64,000 nucleotides of DNA. Origin: Escherichia coli. GTDB lineage: Bacteria; Pseudomonadota; Gammaproteobacteria; Enterobacterales; Enterobacteriaceae. This document shows, piece after piece, positions 1 to 33,926 of this stretch (within the stretch, counting starts at the first letter, position 1; every line of letters starts with the position of its first letter). The stretch is from the NCBI RefSeq assembly GCF_044324785.1, contig NZ_CP172127.1; one strand, 5' to 3'. The notes below the pieces were generated by a model. That model did no database searches. It was given only the letters and a program-made list of their open reading frames with translations, and had not been told where the DNA came from. A program made the translations under genes and the position numbers.

Positions 1-168
1 CCAATTGATGAGCAAAAGACAATAACGAATTACTTGAGTGCAGCAACGATAAACATTGATTTACTGATTCAAGAGACTGATAAATCGATTGATCTTCTAA
101 AAGAACACCGCACATCGCTGATCAACGCGGCTGTCACAGGAAAAATAGACGTCAGGGAGGCGGTGTAA
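1..168 (+). CDS. hsdS: Type I R-M specificity subunit HsdS, C-terminal fragment (5' end outside window)
   Basis: Frame open from position 1 to TAA at 166-168; translation ends ...EHRTSLINAAVTGKIDVREAV, the conserved C-terminal helix of HsdS; stop overlaps the hsdR ATG (TAATG). Confidence 0.7.
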   Translation, partial: PIDEQKTITNYLSAATINIDLLIQETDKSIDLLKEHRTSLINAAVTGKIDVREAV

Positions 169-3100
169 TGGCTGCACATCATGAAGTGCATTTTGAACAA
201 TATATTACCGAGCAGTTGGTGAACAATGGCTGGAAAGAAGGCCATTCCTGCCACTATGACCAGCAACGCGCCCTTTACCCGCAAGATGTCATGGATTGGG
301 TAAAGGCCACCCAGCCAGATGCCTGGCACAAACTGAATAAACTGCATGGTGTGAATGCCGAGCAGGTGCTGTTGGAGCGTTTGGAAAAAGCCCTCTCTTC
401 CCACAAAGCTGGCAGTAAAACAGGTGGCACCATTAATGTGCTGCGTAAAGGCTTTACCATTGCAGGTTGCGGCACGATTGCCATGGGCCAACGCAAACCC
501 GAAGATGCGCGCAATGAAGAGCGTATAGCCCGTTATGAGCACAACATTTTGCGCGTGGTGCGCCAACTGAAATATTGCCCGACTCGCGAGTGGGAAATTG
601 ACTTGGTGTTCTTTATCAACGGTCTACCCGTTGCCACCGCCGAGCTAAAAACCGATTTTACCCAGTCGCTAGAATCGGCGATTGCGCAGTACAAAGAGGA
701 TCGTCTGCCCGTTGACCCAAAAACCAAGCGTAAAGAGCCGCTGTTAACCTTTAAACGCGGTGCAGTGGTACATTTTGCCATGTCTGATACAGAAATCGCC
801 ATGGCGACCAAACTGGCGGGAGAAAATACCTATTTTCTGCCCTTCAATAAAGGCCATGATGGTTCTACCTCTGATTTGCCCGTACACATCAACTTGCCGG
901 GTGAAGATGGAGAGTATCCGGTCAGCTATTTTTGGCAAGAAATTGCCCAAAAAGATAATTGGCTACGCATTTTCTACAGCTTTGTGTATGTCGAAACCAA
1001 AGAGGTTGCCGATAGCAATGGCAAGGTTGAGCGTAAGGAAACACAGATTTTTCCGCGTTATCATCAGTTAGCCGCAGTCAACAAGATGATTGATGATGCC
1101 CGCCAGAACGGCGCAGGCATGCAGTATCTTTGTGAGCACAGCGCCGGTTCGGGAAAAACCTCTACCATAGCCTGGACGGCCCATGATTTGATTCGTTTAC
1201 GCAGCACCGATGGTAAAGCGGTCTTTAAATCAGTGATCATTGTGACCGACCGCACCGTGCTGGATTCGCAGTTGCAAGATGCGGTGCAACAGCTGGATCA
1301 TCAATATGGGGTGATTAAGGTGATTGATCGCGAAAAGAGCAGCGAGTCGAAATCAAAACAGCTGACTGAAGCGCTATTGACTGGCACGCCGATCATTGTA
1401 GTGACGATTCAAACCTTCCCATATGCGTTAGAAGCGATTCTGACCAATCAATCTTTGGCACAAAGTAACTTTGCGGTGATCATCGATGAAGCACACACCT
1501 CGCAAACAGGCTCTACAGCCAAAGGGTTACGCGCAGCGCTTACTCTAAACCTTAGCCCTCAAGAGTTGGAGCAAATGAGCATTGAGGACATTCTTACTAA
1601 GGTGCAAGAAGCGCGCGCCATGCCCAAGAACGTTTCGCACTTTGCTTTTACGGCAACACCCAAGCACAGCACCAAGATGTTGTTTGGCCGCCCGAAAGAC
1701 CCTAACCAACCAGTGTCAGATGACAATCTTCCTGAATCGTTCCACCTCTACACCCAACGTCAGGCCATTGATGAGGGTTTTATTCTTGATGTGCTGGAGA
1801 ATTACACCCACTACGATACAGCCTACAAAATTGGTGAGAACAATCTGGATGAGAAGCGCGTAGACAGCAAACAAGCTCGCCGCGCGTTGGCGCGCTGGAT
1901 GTCACTGCACCCAACCACGGTCAGCCAAAAAGTCGAATTTATTATTAAGCACTTCAAGGCCAATATCGCTCACCTACTGGAAGGTGAAGCCAAAGCCATG
2001 GTGGTCACATCGGGCAGGCCACAGGCGGTGAAATACAAGCTTGCTTTTGATAAATACATTAAAAAGCATGGTATTGAAGGTATCCAAGCCTTGGTTGCCT
2101 TCTCGGGCAAAGTCCCCGGCAAAGATTTGGGTGATGAAGACAGCCAAGACCCGCTAGAAATTGATTTCGATAAAGAGTACACCGAGTACAACTTAAACCC
2201 AGACACGCACGGGGCTGACCTGCGCCATGAGTTTGAGAAAACCGAATATCGCGTCATGTTAGTCGCCAACAAGTTCCAAACGGGCTTTAATCAACCAAAA
2301 CTGGTTGCCATGTATTTGGATAAGAAAATATCCGATGTAGAAGCGGTGCAAACGCTGTCTCGCCTAAACCGCACCTATCCAGGCAAAGACACAACCTTCG
2401 TGATTGATTTTGTTAACGATCCACAAACCATTCTCAATGCGTTCAAAAAGTACGACAAAGGCGCGCAGCTTAATGAAGTGCAAGATGTGAACGTCATCTA
2501 TGACATCAAAGATATTTTGGATGAACAGAACATATACAACCATCAAGATTTAGAGTTGTTTAAGCAAGCGCGTGGTAAATCGATTCTCGGCCAATCACCT
2601 GACAAAAAGTCACACGCGCACAAGAAACTGCTAGCTGCCACACAACGCCCTACCGATGTGTTCAACGTTAAGCTCAAAGAGCTGGTTGATGCTGCAAACC
2701 ATTGGGATCAGCAATACAACAAAGCGCACCTTGCGGGTGATGAAAAAGCGGCGAACTACGCAGAATCTCAGCGCAGTGATTTCACCAAGCAGCGCGAAGC
2801 ACTAATGCGTTTTAAGTCAGATTTAGCTCGATTTGTGAAGCACTATAGCTATATGGCGCAATTGATTGAGTTTGGTGATCCTGAACTGGAAAACTTTGCC
2901 GCGTTTGCTCATTTGCTATCACGTCGATTGAAAGGGGTAACACCAGAAAACATCGATCTCAGTGCACTGGTACTAGAAAAATTCAAAATCAAATACGACA
3001 AAGAGCCGCTTCCAGAAGCGTTTAATCAGGTACTTGAACCTATCCGCCCCAACTATAACGACCCTGCGGATCGTGAACAGGCATTTCTTGCCGATATCAT

Positions 3101-3404
3101 TCGCCGCCTAAACGAACTGTTTGGCGATGTCGGCGACGAACCCGGTCGCCGAAACTTTGCCAACGGTACTATTACGCGTGTCACCCAAAATCCAATTGTG
3201 GTTGAGCAGATAGAAAAGCACGACAAGTCGATTGCCCTCAAAGGCGACTTGCCGCAAGCGGTGAAGCAAGCCGTTGTGCAGGCTCTGCTGAAAGAAGGTG
3301 ATATAGCCCGAACGCTACTCAAAGACCCACAAGTTATGGCAAGTTATGTTGAGTTGATTTTTGACATGATGAAGCAAGGTGCAGAACAGGCGGCGGTGAA
3401 ATAA
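168..3404 (+). CDS. hsdR: Type I restriction enzyme R subunit HsdR (1078 aa)
   Basis: Long ORF with SF2 helicase motifs (EHSAGSGKTSTIAW Walker A, IIDEAH DEAH box) and N-terminal nuclease region typical of HsdR; immediately follows hsdS. Confidence 0.9.
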   Translation: MAAHHEVHFEQYITEQLVNNGWKEGHSCHYDQQRALYPQDVMDWVKATQPDAWHKLNKLHGVNAEQVLLERLEKALSSHKAGSKTGGTINVLRKGFTIAGCGTIAMGQRKPEDARNEERIARYEHNILRVVRQLKYCPTREWEIDLVFFINGLPVATAELKTDFTQSLESAIAQYKEDRLPVDPKTKRKEPLLTFKRGAVVHFAMSDTEIAMATKLAGENTYFLPFNKGHDGSTSDLPVHINLPGEDGEYPVSYFWQEIAQKDNWLRIFYSFVYVETKEVADSNGKVERKETQIFPRYHQLAAVNKMIDDARQNGAGMQYLCEHSAGSGKTSTIAWTAHDLIRLRSTDGKAVFKSVIIVTDRTVLDSQLQDAVQQLDHQYGVIKVIDREKSSESKSKQLTEALLTGTPIIVVTIQTFPYALEAILTNQSLAQSNFAVIIDEAHTSQTGSTAKGLRAALTLNLSPQELEQMSIEDILTKVQEARAMPKNVSHFAFTATPKHSTKMLFGRPKDPNQPVSDDNLPESFHLYTQRQAIDEGFILDVLENYTHYDTAYKIGENNLDEKRVDSKQARRALARWMSLHPTTVSQKVEFIIKHFKANIAHLLEGEAKAMVVTSGRPQAVKYKLAFDKYIKKHGIEGIQALVAFSGKVPGKDLGDEDSQDPLEIDFDKEYTEYNLNPDTHGADLRHEFEKTEYRVMLVANKFQTGFNQPKLVAMYLDKKISDVEAVQTLSRLNRTYPGKDTTFVIDFVNDPQTILNAFKKYDKGAQLNEVQDVNVIYDIKDILDEQNIYNHQDLELFKQARGKSILGQSPDKKSHAHKKLLAATQRPTDVFNVKLKELVDAANHWDQQYNKAHLAGDEKAANYAESQRSDFTKQREALMRFKSDLARFVKHYSYMAQLIEFGDPELENFAAFAHLLSRRLKGVTPENIDLSALVLEKFKIKYDKEPLPEAFNQVLEPIRPNYNDPADREQAFLADIIRRLNELFGDVGDEPGRRNFANGTITRVTQNPIVVEQIEKHDKSIALKGDLPQAVKQAVVQALLKEGDIARTLLKDPQVMASYVELIFDMMKQGAEQAAVK

Positions 3405-3958
3405 TGAATACTGCGTTTCGGGTTTTACTTACGTTCAATGCAACATCACTACTAGTGATTATCTTTGCGGTACAAAAAGGGTACTCACTCGGATATTTCT
3501 TTGGTGGTTTCGCTTGCTTCGATTGGATAGCAGCACTTCCGAACGCAGTATCATATTTACTCTATTTTCTTATCCCTGTTTTATCGACTGGATTGAGTAT
3601 TTGGCTGAGTAAGTATTTGGGTAAAGACGATTTTAAGGCGGGTGAAGTAGCGAGTATTGAGCATGCCAATAACAGCTTCCTACCAAGTTATTTGGGTTAC
3701 TTTTTCGTGGCGTTGAGCATTGGTAACTGGGAGACATTGTGGTTTGTTTATGGCGTTTTGTTTGTTTTTACTCTCTTATCGCAAGCACTCTACTTTAACC
3801 CATTGTTTTTACTGTTTGGTTATGAGTTTTATAACATTACAACCAAAAACGGAACGGCCATTTTCCTTATTAGCCGAGAGCGCTACAAGAAGCCAGATGA
3901 CATCGAAATATCATTGGCTTATCGAATCAATAATTACACATTTATCGAGCGAGGATAA
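3404..3958 (+). CDS. Multi-pass membrane protein (184 aa), first gene of candidate two-gene defence module (KwaA-like architecture, unverified)
   Basis: ATG overlaps the hsdR stop; 4-5 hydrophobic helices (LLVIIFAVQ, FACFDWIAALPNAVSYLLYFLIPVLSTGLSIWL, YFFVALSIGNWETLWFVYGVLFVFTLL, LFLLFGYEF); visibly AT-richer than hsdR. Confidence 0.6.
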   Translation: MNTAFRVLLTFNATSLLVIIFAVQKGYSLGYFFGGFACFDWIAALPNAVSYLLYFLIPVLSTGLSIWLSKYLGKDDFKAGEVASIEHANNSFLPSYLGYFFVALSIGNWETLWFVYGVLFVFTLLSQALYFNPLFLLFGYEFYNITTKNGTAIFLISRERYKKPDDIEISLAYRINNYTFIERG

Positions 3959-4800
3959 TGATGGACCATGTACTGGCACATATAAAAACTAGAGCAAAAA
4001 AACGCATTTTCAAATTGGTTTCTGATCAATCTCTTTTTGATACCGTCACAATCGACTTAAATGCCTGTATTCCATACAATCCAGACCATAACCTTGACGA
4101 AGACTCATGGTTTAAAATTGAAGACTTTAGTCAAAAAGAGTTTTGTATTGAACTGCTAAAAAAAGACTATGATTCAAAAGACTACGATGACTTAACCAAA
4201 GATAACTTCGCCAAGATCGCCTACTTATTTGCAATTCAAGGTAATGATTTTTACTTTCAAAAAATCACTCCAAGCCTATTCGTAAAACGCAAAACGCTTG
4301 TTTTTGGTGAAGCCGCAGAAATTGAGAAGAGCCAAACACGTTTAGTAATAAACGCCTTACCTGATGCAGTGTACTTCAAAGTGGCCGATACCTTGATATT
4401 CAAAAATCTGGCAACGATCTCGAGCATTTTTAAAGGTATCGATGAGTTGTACAAGGAAGCAACAAAAGAAGAAGTTGAGCAGTTTTTAGATGCACAGTTT
4501 ATAGAGTTGGGTAATGACTACAACGTAGATAGCGTCTCAAAACCTAATAGAAAACGTATTGGCCTTGCTATGGCAACACTTGATGCGATGTCTGCTGACG
4601 ATAAAGCTAACATGCTTGATTATATCGACGGTTACTGCGGTGAACAGAAGCTGAAATTCGATAAAGAAAATCAGAAGTTTGAAATATCTAATGACGATGA
4701 GTTGAAGTTACTGCTTTATGGCATTGAACAACGCTTCTATACGACCCCGTTTGGCAAAGAAAAAAGGCTCGCTAACTCTGTAACCGCTATGGATAAATAA
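3958..4800 (+). CDS. Soluble protein of unknown function (280 aa), second gene of candidate defence module (KwaB/DUF4868-like by architecture only)
   Basis: Start overlaps the upstream stop (TAATGATG); acidic, K/D/E-rich, no hydrophobic segments, no motif I recognise; AT-rich. Confidence 0.55.
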   Translation: MMDHVLAHIKTRAKKRIFKLVSDQSLFDTVTIDLNACIPYNPDHNLDEDSWFKIEDFSQKEFCIELLKKDYDSKDYDDLTKDNFAKIAYLFAIQGNDFYFQKITPSLFVKRKTLVFGEAAEIEKSQTRLVINALPDAVYFKVADTLIFKNLATISSIFKGIDELYKEATKEEVEQFLDAQFIELGNDYNVDSVSKPNRKRIGLAMATLDAMSADDKANMLDYIDGYCGEQKLKFDKENQKFEISNDDELKLLLYGIEQRFYTTPFGKEKRLANSVTAMDK

Positions 4801-4820
4801 TAGCCCATTATCAGTAACAT

Positions 4821-5870
4821 ATGAAGGTTGATTCAATGGCCGATAACATCCCACAAGCTCCTCAAGGTGAGTTTGTTCTTTTCACCAGTGCTGATGGTCA
4901 AACCCGCGTTGAGTGTCGTTTTGAGTCTGACACCTTGTGGCTTTCTCAGGCTGCAATGGCAGAGCTTTATCAAGTTAGCTCTCAAGCAATCACCCAACAC
5001 GTAAAAGCTGTCTATTCTGAAGAAGAGCTTGAGCAAATTTCAACTTGTAAGGATTACTTACAAGTTCAACTGGAAGGTGGCAGAGAAGTAAAGCGAAGCA
5101 TTCGTCACTACAGTCTTCCGGTTATTCTTGCAGTAGGATACCGAGTTCGCTCAACACGTGGCACCCAGTTCCGCCAATGGGCAACCAGAATGTTGCAAGA
5201 ATACCTAATCAAAGGATTCGTCATGGATGACGAGCGCCTGAAAAATCCGCCCATTGGCCATTCTGCTGTGCCAGATTACTTTGATGAAATGCTGGAACGC
5301 ATTCGTGATATCCGAGCTAGTGAGCGTCGCGTTTATCTGCGAGTCAAAGAAATCTTTACCATGGCTGCTGATTACGAGCCATCTAACCAAGAGACCAACC
5401 GCTTCTTCCAAACCATTCAGAATAAGCTGCATTATGCTTGTACGCATATGACGGCTGCTGAGCTTATCGCCAGCCGTGTGGATGCCAGTAAGCCGGATAT
5501 GGGCTTAACCAGCTATAAAGGCGATGAAGTGCGCAAGACAGACGTTACTGTTGCCAAGAACTATTTGCGTGAAGACGAAATCAAAGAGCTTAATCGCATC
5601 GTCAATATGTGGCTCGACTTTGCTGAAGACCAAGCACTGCGTCGCAAGCAGGTATTTTTACAGGACTGGGCCGATAAGCTTGACCAGTTCTTGAGTTTTA
5701 ACGATAGAGATGTATTAAACGGTGCAGGAAAAATCTCCAAGAAAGACGCTGATGACAAAGCGAAATTGGAGTTTGACCGCTTTGCCCAGCAGCGCCGTCG
5801 TTTAAAAGAAGCCGAAGGCGCACGGGCCAATATCGCAGCCCTCAAGGCCATACTAAAAAAAGATAAATAG
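4821..5870 (+). CDS. RhuM-family protein (alternative start at ATG 4836)
   Basis: N-terminal segment LFTSADGQTRVECRFESDTLWLSQAAMAELYQVSSQAITQHVKAVY matches the RhuM family N-terminal region as I recall it; 20 bp downstream of the preceding gene, same strand. Confidence 0.55.
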   Translation: MKVDSMADNIPQAPQGEFVLFTSADGQTRVECRFESDTLWLSQAAMAELYQVSSQAITQHVKAVYSEEELEQISTCKDYLQVQLEGGREVKRSIRHYSLPVILAVGYRVRSTRGTQFRQWATRMLQEYLIKGFVMDDERLKNPPIGHSAVPDYFDEMLERIRDIRASERRVYLRVKEIFTMAADYEPSNQETNRFFQTIQNKLHYACTHMTAAELIASRVDASKPDMGLTSYKGDEVRKTDVTVAKNYLREDEIKELNRIVNMWLDFAEDQALRRKQVFLQDWADKLDQFLSFNDRDVLNGAGKISKKDADDKAKLEFDRFAQQRRRLKEAEGARANIAALKAILKKDK

Positions 5871-5927
5871 CCGATATAGTACAGCCCTGATCTCTAATGA
5901 GTTGAGGGCTGTGTTGTAAGATCATAA

Positions 5928-6604
5928 CTATAAAGGATTATCCATCTTAAAATCGTCGATATCGCCTGTCATTTTGAATAGATTGGTGTCATTCCAACGG
6001 CACAGTTGTCTAACCCGCATTAGATTTGAGTTGGCTCTGCGGATTATTGAGAAAGCATCTTCAACAGCAGTAATCACCGATTTTTCCCAATCTTGTGCTC
6101 GGGTAAAGGTGCTTTGTGAATAGCGATAATTGCCCTCACGGGGGAGGTAATGGCTGATCACCTGGTATTTGTCAGAATTCTTTTTAGGTTTAAACTCGTT
6201 GTAAACCCAGAAAATTTCGAGTTTTTTGTTTCTTTGCCTTACACGACAACCAAAATGACCTGGGTAGCCTTCAGAGTTTTTACCTCTATGTGCAACGTTG
6301 TTCAGCCAGAACAAGTCTGCAATTTTTTGTGCTATGTAGAAGTAGCGGAGCTGTTCTATTTCGGTTGATTTATGGGTGTAGTGTAGATATTGCTCTGATA
6401 TGGTTAAGGAAAAAGCATTGCGTCGTCTTGATTAACATTTGTGCTATTGACAATAAAGGTTTCCCAAATATTAATTTGTGTTTCTAGTCCTTTAAATGAT
6501 TTTGAGAAGGCTTCTATGTACTCAGATTGCGGTTGATTTCCCCCATTTAGTGCTGCACCAAATGTAGCTATCTGTTGTTCTAAAAATGAATGATTTTTGG
6601 TCAT
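5928..6604 (-). pseudogene. Hypothetical AT-rich gene, apparently frameshifted (66-aa frame 6404-6604 continuing in +1 frame to 5928)
   Basis: Good SD (AGAGGA) before ATG at 6604; second frame opens just before the first frame's stop and runs ~155 codons with no ATG (ORF track used TTG at 6314); abutted by the IS3-family TIR. Confidence 0.35.
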
Positions 6605-6630
6605 TACATAATCCTCTGTGTGGTTGATAC

Positions 6631-6664
6631 TGCGTATTTTCATGAAAGGAGATCACTCAATAAC
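6631..6664. repeat. IS3-family left terminal inverted repeat (34 bp)
   Basis: Exact reverse-complement match to 8296-8329; begins TG. Confidence 0.8.
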
Positions 6665-6712
6665 CCCCCTGTGTCAGCATAGTTGTCGCCTCAATTTTTT
6701 AAGGAGATAACA

Positions 6713-7225
6713 ATGCCAGGACAACCAATACCAAATGAGCTCAAAGAAAAAGGACTGATATGGCTTTTGCCACCATACTGTTGGTCACACCGTCAGATAG
6801 CCCGGAAGCTGAAGATCAGTGCCTCAGTTGTATCAAAATGGAGATGTGAGTTAGTGGAGCAAGGACTTTTACCTGAAAATGAAAAGATTACCTCCGTTGA
6901 TGTTGAAGACTGGACACCGGAGCGTCGATTCTCAGTTGTTCTTGAGACGGCTACGCTGTCAGAAATGGAACTTGCTGATTATTGCCGACGCATGGGATTG
7001 TTTGTTGAACAGGTTAAAGAATGGCGGGCTATCTCAATTCAGGCGCATGAAAAGAAATTGACGGAAAATATCCGAACAGACAGGGCATTGCGTGACGCAA
7101 AAAATAAGTTACGAGAACTGGAGAAAGAGCTTAAGCGCAAAGATAAAGCTCTGGCGGAAGCAGCTGCCCTGCTTATATTAAGGGAAAAGTTCAATGCCCT
7201 CTGGGACAACAGCGAGGAAGACTGA
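6713..7225 (+). CDS. IS3-family transposase OrfA (HTH plus leucine-zipper region)
   Basis: SD AAGGAG 6 nt before ATG 6713; C-terminal heptad-like LRELEKELKRKDKALAEAAALLILREKF. Confidence 0.6.
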   Translation: MPGQPIPNELKEKGLIWLLPPYCWSHRQIARKLKISASVVSKWRCELVEQGLLPENEKITSVDVEDWTPERRFSVVLETATLSEMELADYCRRMGLFVEQVKEWRAISIQAHEKKLTENIRTDRALRDAKNKLRELEKELKRKDKALAEAAALLILREKFNALWDNSEED

Positions 7226-8252
7226 CCCCTCTCCTGGAGCGGCATAAAATTATTTCTCTTGTCCGTGAGGCCGTCGCCAACGGCGCCCGGAAAGGTCAGG
7301 CTTGTAGGTGTATCGGTATTTCTATTCGGACACTTCAGCGCTGGACTAATGGCAACATCATCACCACGGACCGAAGATCCGATACTGTAAACAGCTCTCC
7401 CCGAAATAAGCTGTCAGAAGCGGAAAGATTGCGAATACTGGAGTTGTGCAACTCTCCAGAGTTTGCATCCTTGCCTCCAAATGTGATCGTACCAACTCTG
7501 GCAGACAGAGGTATTTATATTGCTTCTGAATCAAGTTTTTATCGTGTACTGAAATCAGCCAAGCAGTTGAAGAAACGATCCCGTGAATGCCAGTATAAAC
7601 TGGCCTGATGTACTCAGGGCCGTTGCACCGAATCAAGTCTGGAGTTGGGACATCAGCTATTTGCCGTCCTGGGTCAGAGGCCAGCATTTTTACCTCTATA
7701 TGATCGTCGATATTTACAGTCGCAAAATTATTGCTGCTGAGGTATTTGCCAGCGAATCTGGAAAACATGCAGCAGAACTACTCCAGCGTGCAGTATGGAA
7801 TGAAAAATGTTCATCCAACAATCTGGTACTCCATTCTGATAACGGTGGTCCCATGCGCAGTGACACGTTGTTGGCGAAAATGTATGCGCTTGGTGTGCTA
7901 AGTTCTTATTCCCGGCCAAGAGTCAGTAATGATAATCCTTACTCAGAATCTTTGTTCCGGACTCTCAAATATTGTCCCTGGTGGCCTGAGAACGGTTTTC
8001 GCACTATTGATGATGCCAGAGTATGGGTAAACCAGTTTTGTAAACTGGTACAACTTTGAACATAAGCACAGCGGGATCAAATACGTCACGCCAGCCGAGC
8101 GTCATCAAGGTAATGATATGAAAATACTGGCGGCCAGAAAAGCAGTATACCAGCTGGCACGCGAACAGCATCCTGAACGTTGGGGAAAGCATCTACGTAA
8201 CTGGGACTACATATCAGAAGTCTACCTGAATCCAGAAAAAGAGGCTGCATAA
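7222..8252 (+). pseudogene. IS3-family transposase OrfB (DDE integrase core), interrupted by extra frameshifts/stops
   Basis: Integrase-core sequence split over three frames (...CQYKLA stop; VWSWDISYLP...SDNGGPMRSDT...KYCPWWP; HSGIKYVTPAERH... ending 8252). Confidence 0.55.
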
Positions 8253-8295
8253 CGTAATTTTATTACAAAAGGCGACAACTACCTTGAAAAACGCC

Positions 8296-8866: not shown

Positions 8867-9032
8867 AACAGCGTATTCGTGAGGGGTGAGCCATGAATAA
8901 AATCCCTTTTGAAGTATTAATCCACTCTGAAAATGCATTAATCTGCGCAAAGGAAATGGACGCGTTATTAATTAAGTTAATTGATATTCCGGAAAGTGGC
9001 GATAAAACATATTCGATGACGGACAGGCGACA

Positions 9033-9305
9033 ATGTGGTTATCTGTGCTGGCGTTTGGCAGACAGGCCGAAGCACTGGCCAGACACCAGAAAGGCGAACT
9101 GGTAAGCGTGGCAGGTAACATGCAGGTCAGCCAGTGGACAGGGCAGAACGGGAAAACGCGGCAGGGACGGCAGGTTATCGCAGACAGCGTAATCAATACT
9201 CAAACGGTGCGGCCAGGAGGAAGCAGACGCGAAACCACAGGTACACAGGGTAATCAGCCACCAACGGGAGGCGACGCCACTTACGGAGATGATATACCCT
9301 TATGA
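9033..9305 (+). pseudogene. ssb: Single-stranded DNA-binding protein (plasmid/ICE-type SSB) remnant lacking its N-terminal part
   Basis: ...VLAFGRQAEALARHQKGELVSVAGNMQVSQWT...GDATYGDDIPL resembles the SSB OB-fold C-terminal half and acidic DDIPF-type tail; upstream frame is closed. Confidence 0.55.
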
Positions 9306-9322
9306 ATTAAGCGGGGCGCAAC

Positions 9323-9643
9323 ATGAACAACAGCACACTGAAGAGCCGGACAATAAGCGACGCGACAGCGGAAGAACTCGAGAGCAGGGGACTGTGGCGA
9401 CGTGCTGCCAGAAGGTGGCAGGATGTGATGATTACTCTTGAGAAAGACAGTCACAGACAGCTTGCAGTAATGAGAGCAAGGGAATGTATCAGGAAGGCAA
9501 AACGCCCGATACCTGAAAGCCGTATTGATATTCATACAGTCAGAAAGGCCGCAGACAGGACAATACAAAAAATGGGGCTACCGTCGCTTACTGATGAAAT
9601 ATGGCGCGATTACCCTGATAGCGTTAACGATGACGGTTATTAA
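9323..9643 (+). CDS. Hypothetical protein (106 aa)
   Basis: ORF directly after the SSB remnant; no recognisable motif. Confidence 0.25.
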   Translation: MNNSTLKSRTISDATAEELESRGLWRRAARRWQDVMITLEKDSHRQLAVMRARECIRKAKRPIPESRIDIHTVRKAADRTIQKMGLPSLTDEIWRDYPDSVNDDGY

Positions 9644-9926
9644 CTGGCGGGGGAAACACGATACCAGCGGGCGTGACTCGGGAGAATATATACCGCTGGT
9701 GGAACATTACCGGCCCTGATGGCTGGTGGCGTGCGTTACGACCTGAAAGACCATCCATGCGGGAAGGTGACACAGGAGCACCTGGCGAACGCGGGGAAGC
9801 GACTGGATGAGATTAAGAAAAAACAGCAGGAGCGCAGAAAAAGTAACCGTCTCATTAAAACGTCTTTCGCCTCCCTTTCCTGTTTCCTATGCTAATGTCC
9901 ATTTTCGCAGTAAAAGGACATTTACG

Positions 9927-16306: not shown

Positions 16307-16780
16307 TCACGCCGCCCTCACGATATAGTTAAACGCGATATTGCGGGGGCGGGTTATGTTAAAGAATGCTCCGTTTAATTCGGCTTTTGCGCGACTGTTT
16401 GTTCCACCCAGAATTGCGTACCACAAATAATCGCTACGGTAATTCCCCGCAAACACCTTATCGCCGCCATAGTCAATATTATTTCCGTTACTCATGTACG
16501 AGATATCCAGCGAAGAATCGTTATCGTCATGACCGCCGACCAGTGTACCTTTCTGCCATGAAAGCAACTTACGCCCCTCGTCAATCTTGCGCCCGTCGTC
16601 CCATCCACGGATAAACTCACCGCGTAAATCGGGAAGACGGAGGGTCGGGTAGACTCTGGCCAGAACAGGATATTGTTCTTTGGTGAACGTAGCTCCGTTG
16701 CACTGTAACCAGCCTGCTGGCGGTGTGGCGGTGGGCCACGGAACAGGCACACCAACAGGCAATGCAGAGCCTTCCCCCAA
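16307..16780 (-). CDS. Tail-fibre C-terminal cassette 2 (unfused alternative variable domain, TTG-initiated frame)
   Basis: Begins with the same conserved box as cassettes 1 and 3 but has a different distal sequence; lies directly after the main fibre stop in +1 frame. Confidence 0.55.
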   Translation of the reverse strand: MGEGSALPVGVPVPWPTATPPAGWLQCNGATFTKEQYPVLARVYPTLRLPDLRGEFIRGWDDGRKIDEGRKLLSWQKGTLVGGHDDNDSSLDISYMSNGNNIDYGGDKVFAGNYRSDYLWYAILGGTNSRAKAELNGAFFNITRPRNIAFNYIVRAA

Positions 16781-16798
16781 ACCAACGTTTTTATGCGG
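16773..16798. other. Putative invertase crossover site B (inverted relative to site A)
   Basis: + strand AAACCAACGTTT at 16779-16790 is the reverse complement of the site A core. Confidence 0.45.
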
Positions 16799-18719
16799 CC
16801 CTTACGATGTAATTAAACGCAACATTGCGGGGGCGCATTGATATCCATGCCCCGGTAAAATTATCCTCCGCTGTCCTTTGAATACCCGTTATAGAGTTAT
16901 CTGCTGATGCAGGAACATAATCGCTATTATTTCCTGCTTTAGGATTAGCTGGGTTTCCAACGGTTATAACAGAATCAGCAGTAGCAAAAGCGATACCTAC
17001 TTTGACATTAGTATTCAGATCGTAACCGTAATAATCCTGCAAAGCTGTACGAATAAATGTTGCAGCCTGACCACTTAGCAATGAACGCCCCGTATCAACT
17101 TTGCGCCCGTCGTCCCATCCACGGATAAACTCACCGCGCAAATCGGGAAGACGGAGGGTCGGGTAGACTCTGGCCAGAACAGGATATTGTTCTTTTGTAA
17201 AGGCGCGCCCGTCACACTTTAACCAGCCTGCTGGCGGTGTGGCGGTGGGCCATGGAACAGGCACACCAACAGGCAGTGCAGAGCCTTCCCCCAAACCAAG
17301 GTAATTGAGGACATCTTTTATACTGCCCTTAGCGATAATAGCGCGACCAATAGCTGTAAGGGTTGCCAGCGCTGCGCGGTCTGCTCCGGTAAAATAAGGC
17401 AACCGATCTGCTGCAGTGGCAAGTCCTGCCAGAGCAGTGAGCGTGGCATCTGCCGGTTGTTTTCCGTTTGCCAGATCGTATGCAGCCTTGACCGCTTTCG
17501 GTGTGGCGGCCAGTATTTCAGACGTGCTGTTGATGGCACTGCTCAATTGTATGGTGCCTTTTGCCGTCAGCGAGGCAGCAGGCACTCCCGTTATCTGACT
17601 CCACGGGTGAGTGTGGCTGACGGGCGCCTTGCCGGCTGCAAGGTCGTATGCAGCCTTGACCGCCTTCGGCGTGGCAGCCTCAGTTTCTGATTGACTGTCC
17701 GTGGCGCTGCTCAGTTGTACGGTGCCTTTTGCCGTCAGCGAGGCAGCAGGCACTCCCGTTATCTGACTCCACGGGTGAGTGTGGCTGACGGGGGCCTTGC
17801 CGGCAGCCAGGTCATATGCAGCCTTGACGGCCTTTGGTGTGGCGGCCAGCGTTTCAGAGGTGCTGTTGGTGGCACTGCTCAGTTGTACGATCCCTTTACG
17901 GGTCGTTGTTGCATCCTGGGCTGTGTATTTTCCCCGGGCCAGATCATACGCGATTTTCACAGCCTTCGGCGTGGCAGCCTCAGTTTCTGATTGACTGTCC
18001 GTGGCGCTGCTCAGTTGTACGGTGCCTTTTGCCGTCAGCGAGGCAGCAGGCACTCCCGTTATCTGACTCCACGGGTGAGTGTGGCTGACGGGGGCCTTGC
18101 CGGCAGCTAGGTCATATGCAGCCTTGACGGCCTTTGGTGTGGCGGCCAGCGTTTCAGAGGTGCTGTTGGTGGCACTGCTCAGTTGTACGATCCCTTTACG
18201 GGTCGTTGTTGCATCCTGGGCTGTGTATTTTCCCCGGGCCAGATCATACGCGATTTTCACAGCCTTCGGCGTGGCAGCCTCAGTTTCTGATTGACTGTCC
18301 GTGGCACTGCTCAGCTGTACGGTGCCTTTTGCCGTCAGCGAGGCAGCAGGCACTCCCGTTATCTGACTCCACGGGTGAGTGTGACTGACGGGTGCCTTGC
18401 CGGCTGCAAGGTCGTATGCAGCCTTGACGGCTTTTGGTGTGGCGGCCAGCGTTTCAGAGGTGCTGTTGGTGGCACTGCTCAGTTGGGTGAACCCCTTAGC
18501 TGTCAGTGTCGCGTCCGGGTGGTTACGGGAACGTACGTGTTCAGCCAGTGACTGTGCGGCTTCCTCCGTTTTTTTCTTCAGCCATTTCGTCCTGTTTGCC
18601 AGTTGCCGGGGGGCTCGATTTGATATCCCGTCAGCACCACCCAGAACCGGATCTGATGTCTCCAGTTGATAGATTTTTTCTTCCCACTTTTCTGTTTCAT
18701 TCAGGTTTCCCATAATCAA
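16791..18719 (-). CDS. Tail fibre protein (642 aa) with internal repeats and C-terminal cassette 1
   Basis: Repeated QLSSAT..SET.AATPKAVK.AYDLA.GK fibre repeat motif; C-terminal region carries the conserved box and ends NYIVRAA. Confidence 0.85.
   Translation of the reverse strand: MIMGNLNETEKWEEKIYQLETSDPVLGGADGISNRAPRQLANRTKWLKKKTEEAAQSLAEHVRSRNHPDATLTAKGFTQLSSATNSTSETLAATPKAVKAAYDLAAGKAPVSHTHPWSQITGVPAASLTAKGTVQLSSATDSQSETEAATPKAVKIAYDLARGKYTAQDATTTRKGIVQLSSATNSTSETLAATPKAVKAAYDLAAGKAPVSHTHPWSQITGVPAASLTAKGTVQLSSATDSQSETEAATPKAVKIAYDLARGKYTAQDATTTRKGIVQLSSATNSTSETLAATPKAVKAAYDLAAGKAPVSHTHPWSQITGVPAASLTAKGTVQLSSATDSQSETEAATPKAVKAAYDLAAGKAPVSHTHPWSQITGVPAASLTAKGTIQLSSAINSTSEILAATPKAVKAAYDLANGKQPADATLTALAGLATAADRLPYFTGADRAALATLTAIGRAIIAKGSIKDVLNYLGLGEGSALPVGVPVPWPTATPPAGWLKCDGRAFTKEQYPVLARVYPTLRLPDLRGEFIRGWDDGRKVDTGRSLLSGQAATFIRTALQDYYGYDLNTNVKVGIAFATADSVITVGNPANPKAGNNSDYVPASADNSITGIQRTAEDNFTGAWISMRPRNVAFNYIVRAA
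17286..17311. other. Putative crossover site C inside the main fibre gene (one half-site degenerate)
   Basis: Reverse complement reads TCAATTACC-TT-GGTTTGGGGGAA; right half conserved, left half diverged. Confidence 0.3.
17290..18510. repeat. Tandem ~300-bp coding repeats within the tail-fibre gene
   Basis: Shadow ORFs 17779-17994 and 18079-18294 are identical (300-bp period); 17834-18088 and 18134-18388 near-identical; protein shows about seven copies of a 45-55-aa motif. Confidence 0.75.
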
Positions 18720-19306
18720 CTGCTCCCGTGGTTATAACTGCCATCATGGATGGCGGTATTGTTATAGCGAATGGCCACAGACTGATACTCCAGGCTGGCC
18801 AGATGGCAGCGGGCCGGTGCAAATGCAGCGAGCGTCTGACGCAGCATCGCGGCCTGATCGTTAGTAATGGGCTGTTTCAGAATAACGCGATAAACCGCCC
18901 AGGCGGCTGCATCTCCATGAACAAACAGTCCGTTATAGCTGCGATTGCCGTCGTAACTGAGACGACCTGTGCCTTCAATCAGATCCACTTCACCAAAGCC
19001 AAAACGGCGGATAACTTCCCGGATTGACCACGGCGTCCCTTTATACCGGTGTAGTTCGATGGCTGCTTTTATAAGCATGCGGCGAACATCGTCCGATTCC
19101 GCCAGCTCCCAGCCATCGCCAGACAGTGAGAACTGCTCGCCCAGCCATGGCAGCGCAGAACTGTCGACGATATCGACGAGAAAGACCATCAGTACGCTCA
19201 GGTCGATGTTATCCAGCCGCCCTGCCAGTCTTCCCAGCGTCCTGAGACTGATATCACCCTCAAGCGGTGGCGGGAGTTGTAATGGCTCAGTCATCAGACA
19301 CTCCAC
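18716..19306 (-). CDS. Baseplate/tail protein, P2 gpI-like
   Basis: Position between baseplate J and tail fibre; size and context. Confidence 0.65.
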   Translation of the reverse strand: MECLMTEPLQLPPPLEGDISLRTLGRLAGRLDNIDLSVLMVFLVDIVDSSALPWLGEQFSLSGDGWELAESDDVRRMLIKAAIELHRYKGTPWSIREVIRRFGFGEVDLIEGTGRLSYDGNRSYNGLFVHGDAAAWAVYRVILKQPITNDQAAMLRQTLAAFAPARCHLASLEYQSVAIRYNNTAIHDGSYNHGSS

Positions 19307-20390
19307 TCATGTTAAGTGTGATCGCCGTACAGTTTGCCCATTCGTTTTCTGCCACCACCCTCAGTGCCGGTGTCACCAGTTCAACCTGGTACACCCCGGA
19401 AACGGACAATGCACTGATAATCTGGCTGGGGACAATATCACGCCCCAGCGTGGCGGCACGTGATGCCACCCAGTTCTGTATGGCGCTGTTAGCGGCATCT
19501 TTTACAGACCTGGCATCCTGATCACGATAGATCGTAATCCTGGCTTCAATGGTGTAATCCACCTTCACTGGTGTTTTAGCCCGCACTGTATCAGTGAGTG
19601 GCCTGACTTTCTCATCAGAGCAGAAACTCTCTACCAGCGTGAGAACACCGCCGTCCGGCAGACCGGTACTGAGCAGCGGATACAGATCTACGGTCCCGGG
19701 AACCGGGGAAAGCACAGCAACATCGACAATGTTGGGATGGGCCTGCATGGCATGAAAGCGGTATGCGCCACGGCTTCCGGCATTGGTGAATGACTCCGGG
19801 GCCAGCCTGATACGCTCCCGGAGCCTGTCATCGTCTTCCTGTTCTGAACCGCCGGAACTGGCCGTCAGATTGCTCACCAGCAGGTCGACGTTATCAATCT
19901 CATCGAGTAACTGACTGACCTGCGCAGGTTGCCAGCCGTTACCAGCGGTACCGGGTTCGGTACAGGTGGACGTGACATTGACCAGCAGCAATCCGGCCTT
20001 CAGTACCACATCTGTATCGGTGGCAAAAATAACGCTGTCGGAAGCGCTGACGCGGGTGCCTGCCGGGATCAGCACATCAATGGTCAGTGCCTCATCCACA
20101 GAGAACTGAAGTGTGGTGGTGGCAGGCTGCGCGGCAAGGCGGTATACACCAACCAGTTCTCCGAGGTAATCAATCATCGGCTCTCGTGAAAAGGCGACCA
20201 GATTCTGCTTTGCTGCCTCCTGTACCGCAACCCTGACCAGCATTTCGCGATAGGCCCACAGATCAATCAGCAGACGTTCTGCCTGTGCCGGGTACAGCGT
20301 TTTGCCGGTATCCGCTTCATACTTCGCAATCATTTCTGCCGTGATTTTGTCGGCATCGCGTTCAATAAAATCGGGTTCTGTCAGCGCCAT
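19287..20390 (-). CDS. Baseplate protein J-like
   Basis: 367 aa, conserved order W-J-I-fibre. Confidence 0.8.
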   Translation of the reverse strand: MALTEPDFIERDADKITAEMIAKYEADTGKTLYPAQAERLLIDLWAYREMLVRVAVQEAAKQNLVAFSREPMIDYLGELVGVYRLAAQPATTTLQFSVDEALTIDVLIPAGTRVSASDSVIFATDTDVVLKAGLLLVNVTSTCTEPGTAGNGWQPAQVSQLLDEIDNVDLLVSNLTASSGGSEQEDDDRLRERIRLAPESFTNAGSRGAYRFHAMQAHPNIVDVAVLSPVPGTVDLYPLLSTGLPDGGVLTLVESFCSDEKVRPLTDTVRAKTPVKVDYTIEARITIYRDQDARSVKDAANSAIQNWVASRAATLGRDIVPSQIISALSVSGVYQVELVTPALRVVAENEWANCTAITLNMSGVSDD

Positions 20391-30819: not shown

Positions 30820-31158
30820 TCACACCCCGCGCAGGATACGAATGACGTCGCCTTCACCCCCGGCTTCATCAAGTGCAATACCACAGGATTTACCGTCGCC
30901 GGACTGCGGCACGGCTCTGGCCTGAGCATCTGACTGAACAGCCACACCACGGCTGACAGCGGCCCCGGCCTCGACAGCAATAATGCCCAGAACGCTCACC
31001 GGCGTGCTGTCGCCGGTAACAGCATCCACTTCGGCAACCCCGAGCGCTGCGGCACCGGCTTTACAGGGGGTATTATTTGCCCCGACAAAACGCTGCTGTG
31101 CCAGTGCTGCCCCTGCCGTTACGGTTGTGATCAGAATGACCTGCTGAGTGGTTCCCAT
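30820..31158 (-). CDS. Small Gly/Ala/Val-rich capsid-associated protein
   Basis: 112 aa low-complexity protein directly after the major head gene. Confidence 0.45.
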   Translation of the reverse strand: MGTTQQVILITTVTAGAALAQQRFVGANNTPCKAGAAALGVAEVDAVTGDSTPVSVLGIIAVEAGAAVSRGVAVQSDAQARAVPQSGDGKSCGIALDEAGGEGDVIRILRGV

Positions 31159-31167
31159 AACGCCTCC

Positions 31168-32121
31168 TTATTTACTGATACCGGTAATGAGATACCCGGC
31201 ATCGCCACCAACCACGGCGACTTTGTAGATATCGGTATAACGGCAGTACTTCACCTTGCCACCGGCTCCGTCGTATTTGTCGGCAACAGGCATCCCCTTA
31301 CGACGCAGGGTGTAGCCGAAGGACGGCTCGTTCTCGTCCGCGCTGTCCGCCCCCGGCTGCGGTTTGCCGACATAGTGCAGCATCAGATTGTCTCCCCAGA
31401 TATCCGCCGGCACGCTGTTCTTATCCATTGCCGCTTTCATGGACGGCAGGGAGACTGGGGCACCGATGACGATCTCTTCGATCTGAAAGAGGTCCTGCAG
31501 GATTTCTGTGGTGATGCGCTTGCGTTCGTTGGCTCCGATGGCGGCCTGAATCGCCGGGTGGAACTTCAGCAGCGCCATCACGCCGGCCCCCATGGTCATC
31601 AGGTTAGGACGCAGCCCCGTGGCCGTACGGACCGCTTCCATACCGGCTTCAATCACCCCGATGGGGTCCCCCTTACCACCGGCCCAGCGATCACTGGCTG
31701 TCAGTTTTTTGACGTGCCCGGTACGGTAGACCTTTTCATCCTGAGCCAGACGGGCAGCGATAAGTTCACGGCGCAGGTTCACGCCATTCGTGGCGCGACG
31801 GATGGCCTTGCTCTCTTCGTTAAACATGGACTCCGCCTGCTCGCGATAGTCCACCGGCGCAGCCAGATCGTGTTCACCCAGCACCAGGTCCAGCGTGCCT
31901 GTTTTTTCACGGACCAGAACATTGCTGTCCGCCCCGACGGCACGCTCGGTGTCATATTCCACAAAGGCGGTTTTCCCGAAGGTCGGTACACGCACGCCTT
32001 CCTTGTCCGTCAGCACGACGGGGAAAATACGTTCGCCGATGAATGCGGCATTTTTATAGCCACGGGCGATACTGGTCAGTACCGGATCAACGACACGTTT
32101 ACCTTTTAAGTAATCAGACAT
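31168..32121 (-). CDS. Major head (capsid) subunit, Mu T-like
   Basis: 317 aa between protease/scaffold and head-completion genes. Confidence 0.8.
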   Translation of the reverse strand: MSDYLKGKRVVDPVLTSIARGYKNAAFIGERIFPVVLTDKEGVRVPTFGKTAFVEYDTERAVGADSNVLVREKTGTLDLVLGEHDLAAPVDYREQAESMFNEESKAIRRATNGVNLRRELIAARLAQDEKVYRTGHVKKLTASDRWAGGKGDPIGVIEAGMEAVRTATGLRPNLMTMGAGVMALLKFHPAIQAAIGANERKRITTEILQDLFQIEEIVIGAPVSLPSMKAAMDKNSVPADIWGDNLMLHYVGKPQPGADSADENEPSFGYTLRRKGMPVADKYDGAGGKVKYCRYTDIYKVAVVGGDAGYLITGISK

Positions 32122-32135
32122 GCTCTCTCCTTAAA

Positions 32136-33251
32136 TTACAGGCAGCGTGCGACAGCAGCCTCATAGCTGATGCCTTCTTTTTTGGACAGGGCCACTGCTT
32201 TCTGATGCAGGGCCAGACGCTCAGGATCGGCTTCCGCAAACTCTGCCACATCCACCTTCACCGTGTCGCCGACACGCTCTTTTGTGGCCTGTTCGGCGAA
32301 ATTCATCACCGGCTCCCCGTCGGAGAGCAATGAACGAAAGGCGGTGGCCAGCGGTGTGCGGCTTTCCCCCTCAGCAAACTCCACCGGCTTGTCGCCACCG
32401 GCGACGGCATCCAGCAGGGCAACCACCACGGAGGAGGCGCGGGGAGCCAGACGGCCCTCTGCGACCAGTTTTTCTGCAAAGGCCACATTGTCCTTATGCA
32501 GTTGCTCCTGTCTGACCTGTGCATCACGCGCATCGCGATCAGCAGCCTGCTGCTTCAGGCGGCGGTTCTCCTCCTGAAGGGCTTCAATCTCTTCTTTTGT
32601 CATCGATGATTCCTCGTTACTTGCGGAAGACGGCCCCGGGCCTGTCTCACTGAATTGTGCACCTGCTGCATCCTGCGACAGTGTGTCGCGGTACGCCTCT
32701 TCGCGCAGACTGTTGAGCTGCCATTCCGGCAGGACTTTTTCTGCCTCGTCCAGACTGAAGCGGGCGATCAGAAAATCGCGCAGCTTTCCCCACAGGGAGG
32801 CATTCGTGATGGCCTGCCAGTCGGCGAACTCCACCACACCTTCTTCCTGCTCACTGAAGGACACCTGTTTCAGCCCCTTGACGGAAGGTGGCTGTGCCCC
32901 GAGAAAGCCCACATGGCGAAGGTAGAGCACGCCGGGCTTCGGATTGGACGGTGAATCCGGGAGGTAGAAAGAGGCGGACACTTTTTTGAATCGTCCGTCG
33001 GTGACCATCTCAGCAAACTGCGGGTCCAGCTGGGCAGGCTCTGCCATCAGATCGACGCCGCTGAGCGACAGGGCTTTCACCCAGCCCCACGCCGGGTCTT
33101 CCGTTCTGGGATGACCAATCACGAGTGGTGCTTCATGGACGGACGGGTCATAGGCTTTCACGCAGGCGGCAAGATCGTCTGGCGTGAACGGCAGTTTTTT
33201 GCCGTGCATATCGGTATGAGTACCGGCTTTAAAAATGTGAATGGCTGACAT
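32136..33251 (-). CDS. Head maturation protease/scaffold, Mu I-like
   Basis: 371 aa, coiled-coil stretch LQEENRRLKQQAADRDARDAQVRQEQ; immediately upstream of major head. Confidence 0.75.
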   Translation of the reverse strand: MSAIHIFKAGTHTDMHGKKLPFTPDDLAACVKAYDPSVHEAPLVIGHPRTEDPAWGWVKALSLSGVDLMAEPAQLDPQFAEMVTDGRFKKVSASFYLPDSPSNPKPGVLYLRHVGFLGAQPPSVKGLKQVSFSEQEEGVVEFADWQAITNASLWGKLRDFLIARFSLDEAEKVLPEWQLNSLREEAYRDTLSQDAAGAQFSETGPGPSSASNEESSMTKEEIEALQEENRRLKQQAADRDARDAQVRQEQLHKDNVAFAEKLVAEGRLAPRASSVVVALLDAVAGGDKPVEFAEGESRTPLATAFRSLLSDGEPVMNFAEQATKERVGDTVKVDVAEFAEADPERLALHQKAVALSKKEGISYEAAVARCL

Positions 33252-33465
33252 TTTGCTGTCCCGCGTTATGTTGTCGGAGACAGTTTGTGAGAAATGCAGG
33301 CCCGGCGATTTTAATCTGCTTTAGAAAACATCAGGGGAGAAGGACAGGGAAAGCAATGCGGTGAACCGGAGGCGGTTATAAAACAGAGGCTGTAAAGCCT
33401 TTATAAAGGTAATACAGCCCCTCATTCGCTGGCAATGATAAATCACCCGCCTGAAGAGAGAAAAC

Positions 33466-33924
33466 TCAGCGACGGGCCGCTGATTCAAGATGGCGGACAA
33501 TGGTATCGAGGATGGGGATTACCACTTCAGGCTGTAGTTCTCCATCCCCCGTCACCGGCAGGAACGGGCGGGCCGGAAGTTCAACAGACTCATTACGCCC
33601 CGTTTTACCCCCGAACTGGTGAATGGCACCGTAAACAACGTTGGTCCCCACAACAGCCTGCCGGTCGTCATGGTCGGTTGATACTGACCCCATCAGACGC
33701 CCGGTATCCTGCAGTGTCTGCCCGTCACGTTCTTCCGCTGCCAGCGAGGGCATCCACCCCGGACGCCCCTCATCAAGAAAGTTAAACTGTGTTTCCGCCA
33801 GCAGGGTTCCGGCGATTTTGCGCATCGCGGGCTCCAGGTCTGTGGCAGCAAGATCCAGCGCACGGAGGCTCCGGCGCAGGGACTTATCGTTAATGGTGAT
33901 ACTGACCAGGTTATCGGAAGCCAT
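33466..33924 (-). CDS. Virion morphogenesis protein, Mu G-like
   Basis: 152 aa after F-like gene. Confidence 0.65.
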   Translation of the reverse strand: MASDNLVSITINDKSLRRSLRALDLAATDLEPAMRKIAGTLLAETQFNFLDEGRPGWMPSLAAEERDGQTLQDTGRLMGSVSTDHDDRQAVVGTNVVYGAIHQFGGKTGRNESVELPARPFLPVTGDGELQPEVVIPILDTIVRHLESAARR

Positions 33925-33926
33925 TG

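Follow-up and report, generated by a model that had tools for sequence, protein, structure and literature searches.

Gene arrangement at the locus

We analyzed a window of 64 000 nucleotides (nt) of Escherichia coli DNA (contig NZ_CP172127.1 of assembly GCF_044324785.1), the first 5870 nt of which carry genes of a type I restriction–modification (R-M) system, two small genes and a rhuM-family gene, all in the same direction. The window opens within the 3΄ end of the gene for the type I specificity subunit, hsdS (positions 1–168, plus strand), which was recognized by reading the sequence and is annotated in E. coli SMS-3-5 as ‘restriction endonuclease subunit S’. On the same strand follow hsdR (168–3404), encoding the type I restriction endonuclease/translocase subunit of 1078 amino acids (aa); a kwaA-like membrane gene (3404–3958; 184 aa); a kwaB-like soluble gene (3958–4800; 280 aa), the predicted DNA-binding effector gene of a Kiwa system; and the rhuM-family gene (4836–5870; 344 aa), which corresponds to the PADLOC candidate system PDC-S05. 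A truncated mobI(A/C) gene of 128 aa (5928–6314, minus strand; RefSeq annotation) converges on rhuM, and RNA folding placed a strong hairpin, assigned to neither strand, in the interval between the two (5875–5918).

The original prediction described a four-gene co-directional block with junctions of 1, 1 and 20 bp. Its strand, its genes and the two 1-nt overlaps at hsdR/kwaA and kwaA/kwaB, both of the TAATG type, were as described, but the third distance was not. The ATG at position 4836 is the rhuM start in RefSeq and yields a product of the same length as the Plesiomonas orthologue (344 aa); an alternative ATG at position 4821 would give 349 aa, but the PDC-S05 profile starts only at residue 6 of this long open reading frame (ORF; 4821–5870), and a Shine–Dalgarno-like AAGG lies 8–9 nt upstream of ATG 4836. 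Because these four observations agree, we placed the conserved rhuM start at position 4836, which makes the gap after kwaB 35 nt and not 20 nt.

Within the window, the hsdS stop codon also overlaps the hsdR start codon as TAATG. In genomes identical over the window stretch, such as the SMS-3-5 locus, the block extends upstream through hsdS and hsdM to a relB-like gene; hsdM (659 aa) and hsdS (428 aa), both intact, lie directly upstream of hsdR, with only the 3΄ end of hsdS falling inside the window, and the hsdM/hsdS junction is again TAATG. The GC fraction drops from approximately 0.48 in hsdR to 0.35–0.39 across the kwaA-like and kwaB-like genes. The four-gene arrangement is not a chance pattern, as it recurs in 76 E. 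coli genomes, in Plesiomonas and in Vibrio.

Identity of the two small genes

The two genes downstream of hsdR had been described as a membrane gene and a soluble gene of no known kind. Their membrane and soluble character was upheld, whereas both PADLOC and fold comparisons assign them to kwaA and kwaB. The 184-aa protein matched the PADLOC KwaA profile over its full length (9e-16), and the 280-aa protein matched the KwaB profile (7e-14), with residues 33–276 aligned to profile positions 42–289 of 292. Newer records of the NCBI Prokaryotic Genome Annotation Pipeline name the former a ‘KwaA family protein’, and a ‘weak’ match to Pfam KwaA (PF28043) is recorded on its close relatives. Pfam scans of the 184-aa and 280-aa proteins themselves gave no significant match, and PF16162 (KwaB/DUF4868) was reached at E ≤ 0.001 by 6 of 94 members of the KwaB-like family.

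Because these and other sequence measures were weak, we tested the Kiwa link by fold, and it was the fold comparison that made the link. An AlphaFold2 model of the KwaB-like protein, built on a 94-sequence alignment, reached a mean predicted local distance difference test (pLDDT) score of 93.3. When this model was compared with the PDB using Foldseek, the six best matches were all KwaB chains (E from 1e-6 to 9e-6, probability 1.0; TM-score 0.56–0.63 over 314–325 columns at 10–13% identity), and the next match had an E value of 0.3. The KwaB fold, in which an N-terminal Rossmann-like domain is followed by a C-terminal DUF4868 domain (PDB 9mtn/9nyu), was found in the 280-aa model. In the model of the KwaA-like protein (pLDDT 88.5), four long helices are followed by a C-terminal region of six strands, and it matched only KwaA chains (E from 4e-4 to 3e-3, TM-score 0.46–0.62), the best being 9mrx_A (E 4e-4, TM-score 0.62) and the next match of any other kind having an E value of 2.3. 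Thus, the 184-aa protein has four predicted transmembrane helices and a cytoplasmic beta domain, as in chain A of PDB 9mrg/9mrx, although its hydropathy profile has clear peaks for three of the four helices only, the helix at approximately residues 92–108 remaining below threshold. A profile–profile comparison using hhalign also joined this KwaA lineage to canonical KwaA (E 5.6e-5 over transmembrane helices 3 and 4 and the beta domain). On the strength of the models, the predicted products of the gene pair are those of a divergent Kiwa system.

In NCBI and UniRef, members of the KwaB-like family are often labelled ‘ATP F0F1 synthase synthase’, a propagated misannotation that no profile search supports.

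Identities of hsdR and rhuM

Type I R-M enzymes methylate host DNA and cut unmodified incoming DNA. The hsdR product matched the PADLOC profile REase_I (2.6e-30) and TIGR00348 (1e-48, yet below the curated cut-off of 284 bits), and its translation contains the D...ELK, GSGKT and DEAH motifs. The Plesiomonas HsdR orthologue, 96–97% identical in amino acid sequence, carries HSDR_N, ResIII, SWI2_SNF2 and T1R_D3-like domains. With these nuclease/translocase features and with cognate hsdM and hsdS genes in the same unit, the type I R-M system is complete by its gene content and is predicted to be active.

The rhuM product matched Pfam Virulence_RhuM (PF13310) at residues 74–327 (1.4e-113) and PADLOC PDC-S05 over its full length (8.4e-167); a search of PDB sequences returned no sequence-related solved structure for it. 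A PDC-S05 homologue from a cold-seep genome reduced the efficiency of plating of T7 and T5 approximately 1000-fold (preprint 10.1101/2024.09.26.614923). Our literature search on RhuM together with hsd genes, and on COG3943, returned background only.

Acquisition of the locus as one unit

The original prediction regarded the genes behind hsdR as inserted cargo, and a comparison with related genomes did not bear this out. KwaB-like relatives at 82–96% identity are found in Plesiomonas, Aeromonas, Shewanella, Vibrio, Alteromonas and Proteus. The Plesiomonas genes stand in the identical order within an intact island adjoining trmE that also carries an integrase, a DUF927 primase and a MobI of 197 aa. 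Using blastn, we found that the E. coli locus aligns with the Plesiomonas trmE islands and with Vibrio loci at 88–90% nucleotide identity over approximately 10 kb, starting at the relB-like gene and ending midway through mobI. DNA similarity to Plesiomonas and Vibrio was lacking only in the two target-recognition regions of hsdS (SMS-3-5 locus 18885–19376 and 19560–20083), as would be expected if type I specificity domains were swapped. Islands of the MGIVchHai6 family occupy trmE or yicC sites and are mobilized by IncC plasmids, and the trmE islands are reported to carry type I R-M genes and rhuM beside mobI (PMC7449626). From this sequence comparison, the whole unit relB-like–hsdMSR–kwaAB–rhuM–mobI was acquired together, as a fragment of an MGIVchHai6-type island. 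An insertion of kwaAB and rhuM behind a resident E. coli hsd locus was rejected, as the entire unit is common to other genera.

The first approximately 6.4 kb of the window was present at ≥95% identity in 76 of 5426 complete E. coli genomes (1.4%), at ≥99% in 75 of them, and all seven ORFs were intact in the 76. In SMS-3-5, the order within the leuX tRNA island is IS1, a RelB/DinJ-like gene, hsdM, hsdS, hsdR, the two small genes, rhuM, the convergent truncated mobI(A/C) and fragments of IS3. The E. coli mobI encodes 128 aa, compared with 197 aa in the intact islands, and the DNA homology stops at approximately window position 6432; because of this, the oriT normally found just upstream of mobI has probably been lost, and with it, probably, the ability of the fragment to be mobilized. 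The E. coli copy also lacks int and xis and lies in the leuX island between insertion sequence (IS) elements, so that the features of an MGIVchHai6-like island are missing. Since mobI is truncated, int and xis are gone and the site is leuX, we regard the window as containing a fragment of such an island and not a member of the family.

We further computed the ratios of nonsynonymous to synonymous substitution (dN/dS) against the Plesiomonas and Vibrio orthologues, and found values of 0.03–0.10 for all four genes (0.04 for hsdR, 0.05–0.06 for the kwaB-like gene and 0.03 for rhuM), indicating purifying selection.

The RelB/DinJ-like first gene, of 165–168 aa, is conserved in E. coli, Plesiomonas and Vibrio (SMS-3-5 16339–16836; positions 2361–2867 of locus L016), and may be a regulator of the operon.

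Transcription and translation signals

According to the original prediction, separate promoters and terminators between the genes would argue against a single transcription unit. Consensus scans of positions 1–7000 found 10 promoter-like matches (11.4 expected from shuffled sequences) and 7 terminator-like matches (7.7 expected). There was thus no excess of such sites, although weak sigma-70-like matches were present inside hsdR and kwaB. The same promoter and terminator consensus scan applied upstream of hsdM also gave counts at or below those of shuffled sequences and located no operon promoter.

The first strong hairpin comes only after rhuM, at positions 5875–5918 (ΔG –23.7 kcal/mol, z –4.5, with none of 200 shuffled sequences folding as well). 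It has a T-run on the minus-strand side only, and is a likely shared or bidirectional transcription stop for rhuM and mobI. In Aliiglaciecola, kwaA–kwaB–rhuM lies behind a different restriction system, and the homology to E. coli starts 5 nt before kwaA, which indicates that no promoter travels with the module. Because four consecutive TAATG overlaps join the genes and no terminator intervenes, we infer that hsdM–hsdS–hsdR–kwaA–kwaB are co-transcribed and translationally coupled; the conservation of tight junctions across many taxa supports co-transcription.

Recurrence of the Kiwa lineage behind restriction operons

We scanned one genome per species with a 13-sequence alignment and obtained 80 loci with KwaB-like relatives at 44–96% identity. 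The KwaA-like gene lies directly before the KwaB-like gene in 78 of the 80 loci, the other two being cut by contig ends, and the kwaA–kwaB junctions measure mostly –4 to +6 nt. Upstream neighbours were counted in those loci whose upstream sequence extended for at least 3 kb, 64 in all. We accordingly determined that in 41 loci (64%) the pair lies directly behind a co-directional hsdS (27) or hsdR (14), with a gap of ≤10 nt in 32 of the 41; a co-directional hsd gene lies within 7 kb upstream in 44/64 loci, and the pair is placed between hsdS and hsdR in four. The R-M-S, M-S-R and embedded arrangements occur at scattered points throughout the KwaB tree, which runs from Bacteroidota and Firmicutes to Gammaproteobacteria. 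For canonical Kiwa, we sampled four lineages, two being in P4-like satellites, one beside CBASS and one in a Moritella island; all four have an upstream region of their own of 200–740 nt, and none (0/4) lies behind a co-directional hsd gene. These results show that this Kiwa lineage docks behind type I R-M operons recurrently and unusually often. Neither the Kiwa paper (PMC11785009) nor the other literature searched mentions the association.

The original prediction had also held that the occurrence of the same genes outside any R-M context would speak against it. This is partly the case: 19 of the 64 have no co-directional hsd gene within reach, and the kwaAB pair is therefore an autonomous module, although the composite nature of the E. 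coli locus stands. The upstream neighbours other than hsd genes are usually also defence genes, namely a C5 methyltransferase with DUF2357/PDDEXK, a PLD-helicase with DUF3427, a type III enzyme, Lamassu, PDC-S06 or DarTG. The co-directional slot after kwaB is occupied by RhuM, DarTG, DRT UG5-nitrilase, Hachiman, a mad3-like ATPase or Avs2-like genes. The restriction partner is interchangeable, as KwaAB pairs with 85–87% amino acid identity lie behind HsdR proteins that are only 22% identical.

In Vibrio and Shewanella islands integrated at yicC, as well as on many contigs from marine metagenomes, KwaAB (83–88% identity) is followed within 3–12 nt by DarT–DarG and not by RhuM. At the yicC hotspot, the upstream nuclease system varies and KwaAB is constant.

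A probable stacked defence operon and its possible mode of action

Taken together, the block is very probably the distal part of one acquired defence operon of approximately 10 kb, relB-like–hsdM–hsdS–hsdR–kwaA–kwaB–rhuM, in which three immune systems are stacked. The composite immunity locus proposed in the original prediction is thereby supported, its components being a type I R-M system, a divergent Kiwa and a RhuM-family gene (PDC-S05).

In E. coli, Kiwa consists of inner-membrane KwaA tetramers with bound KwaB dimers that sense the membrane disturbance caused by phage attachment or conjugation, whereupon KwaB attaches to the entering DNA and stops replication and late transcription; Gam, a DNA mimic of phage lambda, binds KwaB and inhibits Kiwa, and an inhibitor shared between Kiwa and RecBCD is documented (PMC11785009). 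By analogy with the solved system, a KwaA tetramer in the inner membrane would sense phage attachment or conjugation and would release or position KwaB, which may then bind entering DNA and block its replication and late transcription. The type I R-M layer would methylate host DNA and cut unmodified incoming DNA, and the single-gene RhuM-family system (PDC-S05) would provide a third layer. The Kiwa pair appears to act as a promoter-less plug-in that is expressed from whichever defence operon lies upstream. Three independent layers that are expressed together are the best-supported reading, each layer's activity against phages in this host being presumed. Because the restriction partner is interchangeable, kwaAB is likelier to be a modular plug-in than a partner of one particular Hsd enzyme.

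Several observations weigh against this reading. Against the NCBIfam KwaA equivalog NF041622, the 184-aa protein scored 25.4 bits, far below the cut-off of 100, and the protein therefore belongs to a divergent lineage and is no equivalog of the characterized E. coli KwaA. PF16162 gave no match to the 280-aa query at E ≤ 10. Searches of PDB sequences with phmmer and with family hidden Markov models of both small proteins did not recover KwaA or KwaB, though their structures are present there, and hhalign gave no significant match when the KwaB clade was compared with four canonical KwaB sequences (E 0.23, with a shallow template alignment). The Kiwa mechanism is thus carried over a large distance, with TM-scores of only approximately 0.5–0.6 and identities of 11–18%. 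The literature searched yielded no experimental data for the window lineage, and the text of PMC11785009 does not allow its five tested Kiwa systems to be assigned to that lineage. The canonical-context control is small, comprising four lineages. Consensus scans leave some chance of promoters inside hsdR. Finally, RhuM entered the literature as a virulence factor.

Possible functional pairing and alternative explanations

We also considered that the docked Kiwa lineage has specialized as a promoter-less, translationally coupled add-on to restriction operons, above all those of type I, so that the pairing itself is functional; we regard this as possible but rather unlikely. Under such a pairing, membrane-anchored KwaAB could capture or stall DNA at the point of entry and buy time for the slow translocating restriction enzyme, and DNA-mimic anti-restriction proteins could be shared out between KwaB and the restriction enzyme, which would protect each other.

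A stricter form of this possibility is that the KwaAB-like pair is not a free-standing Kiwa at all but a dedicated second layer of type I restriction. It could hold DNA at the membrane for cutting, respond to a block of restriction in the way that PrrC does with EcoprrI, or soak up DNA-mimic anti-restriction proteins. The 41 of 64 loci located directly behind hsdS or hsdR, the four embedded pairs, and docking that extends across the whole KwaB tree and is absent from the four canonical lineages sampled are all consistent with this explanation, as are the binding of a characterized KwaB by Gam and the documented sharing of an inhibitor with RecBCD. However, highly similar KwaAB pairs (85–87%) follow Hsd enzymes with only 22% identity, kwaAB also follows systems other than type I, some pairs stand alone behind a divergent gene, and the cited text (PMC11785009) describes inhibition of Kiwa by Gam only and none such for Ocr. 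Because the Hsd partner varies, hosts other than type I systems exist and 19 of the 64 loci lack a co-directional hsd gene, a specific protein partnership between Hsd and Kiwa is unlikely, and we consider the dedicated second layer improbable.

Another explanation is that the genes are simply packed side by side, each with its own promoter, and that the short junctions reflect genome compaction. Some relatives have a gap of 100–700 nt or a divergent gene upstream of kwaA, which makes self-expression possible; the weak sigma-70-like matches inside hsdR and kwaB and the 35-nt gap before rhuM, with its own Shine–Dalgarno sequence, point the same way. However, with four stop/start overlaps of 1 nt in succession there is no space for promoters between the genes, promoter-like matches were not in excess (10 compared with 11.4 expected), no conserved upstream DNA accompanies kwaAB, and a strong hairpin appears only after rhuM. 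We judge independent expression to be quite improbable on these grounds.

The rhuM gene might be virulence or host-interaction cargo rather than an immune gene. RhuM owes its name to a Salmonella pathogenicity island 3 (SPI-3) mutant with reduced epithelial invasion and reduced killing of Caenorhabditis elegans, as two sources summarize it (PMC1626090, PMC7449626). In the present locus, however, the gene lies 35 nt behind kwaB in a string with two defence systems, its slot in sister islands is taken by DarTG, DRT UG5-nitrilase, Hachiman or Avs-like genes, and the family also occurs in marine, non-pathogenic bacteria. It is moreover the PDC-S05 candidate, one homologue of which gave the approximately 1000-fold protection against T7 and T5 described above, and a virulence role for this copy seems very improbable.

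Least probable of all is that the block in E. coli is what remains of a mobile island in decay, inert and without current function, as its IS1 and IS3/IS5 flanks, truncated mobI, missing int/xis/oriT context and presence in only 1.4% of complete genomes might suggest, since its seven ORFs are intact in all 76 genomes (75 at ≥99% identity) and dN/dS is 0.03–0.10, although these ratios mostly reflect constraint over the history of the families and a recent non-coding inactivation is possible.

Comparison with known systems

We compared the locus with four known systems. Canonical Kiwa (E. coli ECOR8/ECOR12 and O55:H7; PDB 9mrg, 9mrr, 9mrx, 9mtn and 9nyu; PMC11785009) shares with it the order kwaA then kwaB in overlapping or abutting genes, a KwaA with four transmembrane helices and a cytoplasmic beta domain, a two-domain soluble KwaB, and the ‘YxNP...G(Y/F)xxY’ region of transmembrane helix 4, and solved Kiwa proteins are the only ones that the folds match. 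In contrast, the window proteins are only 11–18% identical to the solved ones, and KwaB measures approximately 278 aa compared with 315–326 aa. Whereas canonical Kiwa is solitary and has an upstream region of its own, as in P4-like satellite hotspots, the window lineage is mostly attached to type I R-M operons at their 3΄ end.

The RRDM island of enteropathogenic E. coli combines RptR, a type I R-M system with embedded DarTG2, and an M48 peptidase under one repressed promoter (PMC12255303). Like the window block, it unites type I R-M and an unrelated second system in one unit, begins with a small regulator-like gene, is flanked by IS elements and was acquired horizontally; sister islands of the window block even carry DarTG right after kwaAB. 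However, the passengers of the window block are Kiwa and RhuM and lie after hsdR, whereas the RRDM passenger lies between hsdS and hsdR. The first genes also differ: we set aside RptR as the identity of the first gene on the basis of description, as it is a 165-aa RelB/DinJ-like gene and RptR has 79 aa.

PrrC is the classic example of an immune gene other than R-M embedded in a type I operon, and is held inactive by its cognate EcoprrI. The window locus similarly has such genes within an hsd operon, with co-expression probable from the junctions, but its R-M partner is freely exchanged, which argues against a guard relationship of the PrrC type.

With islands of the MGIVchHai6 family, the locus shares type I R-M genes and rhuM beside a convergent mobI, and its Plesiomonas trmE relatives, with approximately 89% identical DNA, also carry the DUF927 primase and integrase. 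Unlike those islands, the E. coli copy has neither int, xis nor a full mobI, presumably lacks oriT and lies in the leuX island. The part of PMC7449626 available does not mention the two genes between hsdR and rhuM.

Neighbouring features

IS elements bracket the defence operon, with IS1 upstream, outside the window, and fragments of IS3 and IS5 downstream. The latter include a frameshifted IS3-family transposase (window 6683–8270, with orfA at 6683–7225 and orfB fragments at approximately 7583–8059), followed by the IS5 fragments. Further downstream, at approximately 9030–9900 on the plus strand, annotations in matching genomes give three small genes, for a single-stranded DNA-binding protein, a regulator of the PerC family and a ProQ/FinO-family protein; this trio looks like a remnant of the leading region of a plasmid or an integrative and conjugative element. 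Rfam and tRNA scans of the whole window gave no matches.

SMS-3-5 harbours a second, canonical Kiwa in the same island (locus 31093–34026), approximately 7–10 kb downstream, in which kwaB is split by ISVsa5. The SMS-3-5 island thus contains two very different Kiwa lineages, and the window strain has different DNA at the position of the second.

Significance

The block is an ordinary defence island, a probable composite immunity operon of known kinds, and PADLOC-type tools would label all three of its systems. The first gain is one of annotation: two genes that hundreds of gammaproteobacterial genomes, 76 complete E. coli genomes among them, record as ‘hypothetical’ or, wrongly, as ‘ATP F0F1 synthase synthase’ can be read as Kiwa, a pair that Pfam and the NCBIfam equivalog miss. 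A modest biological point is that one Kiwa lineage lies behind or inside type I operons in approximately two thirds of species-level loci. Should the genes be only packed together, this locus is just another ordinary defence island. If, instead, they form a functional pairing, the lineage would be a restriction-docked subtype of Kiwa with synergy built into the operon, and would offer a simple system for the cooperation between a membrane-triggered DNA binder and a DNA-cutting enzyme, and for the packaging of layered immunity by mobilizable islands.

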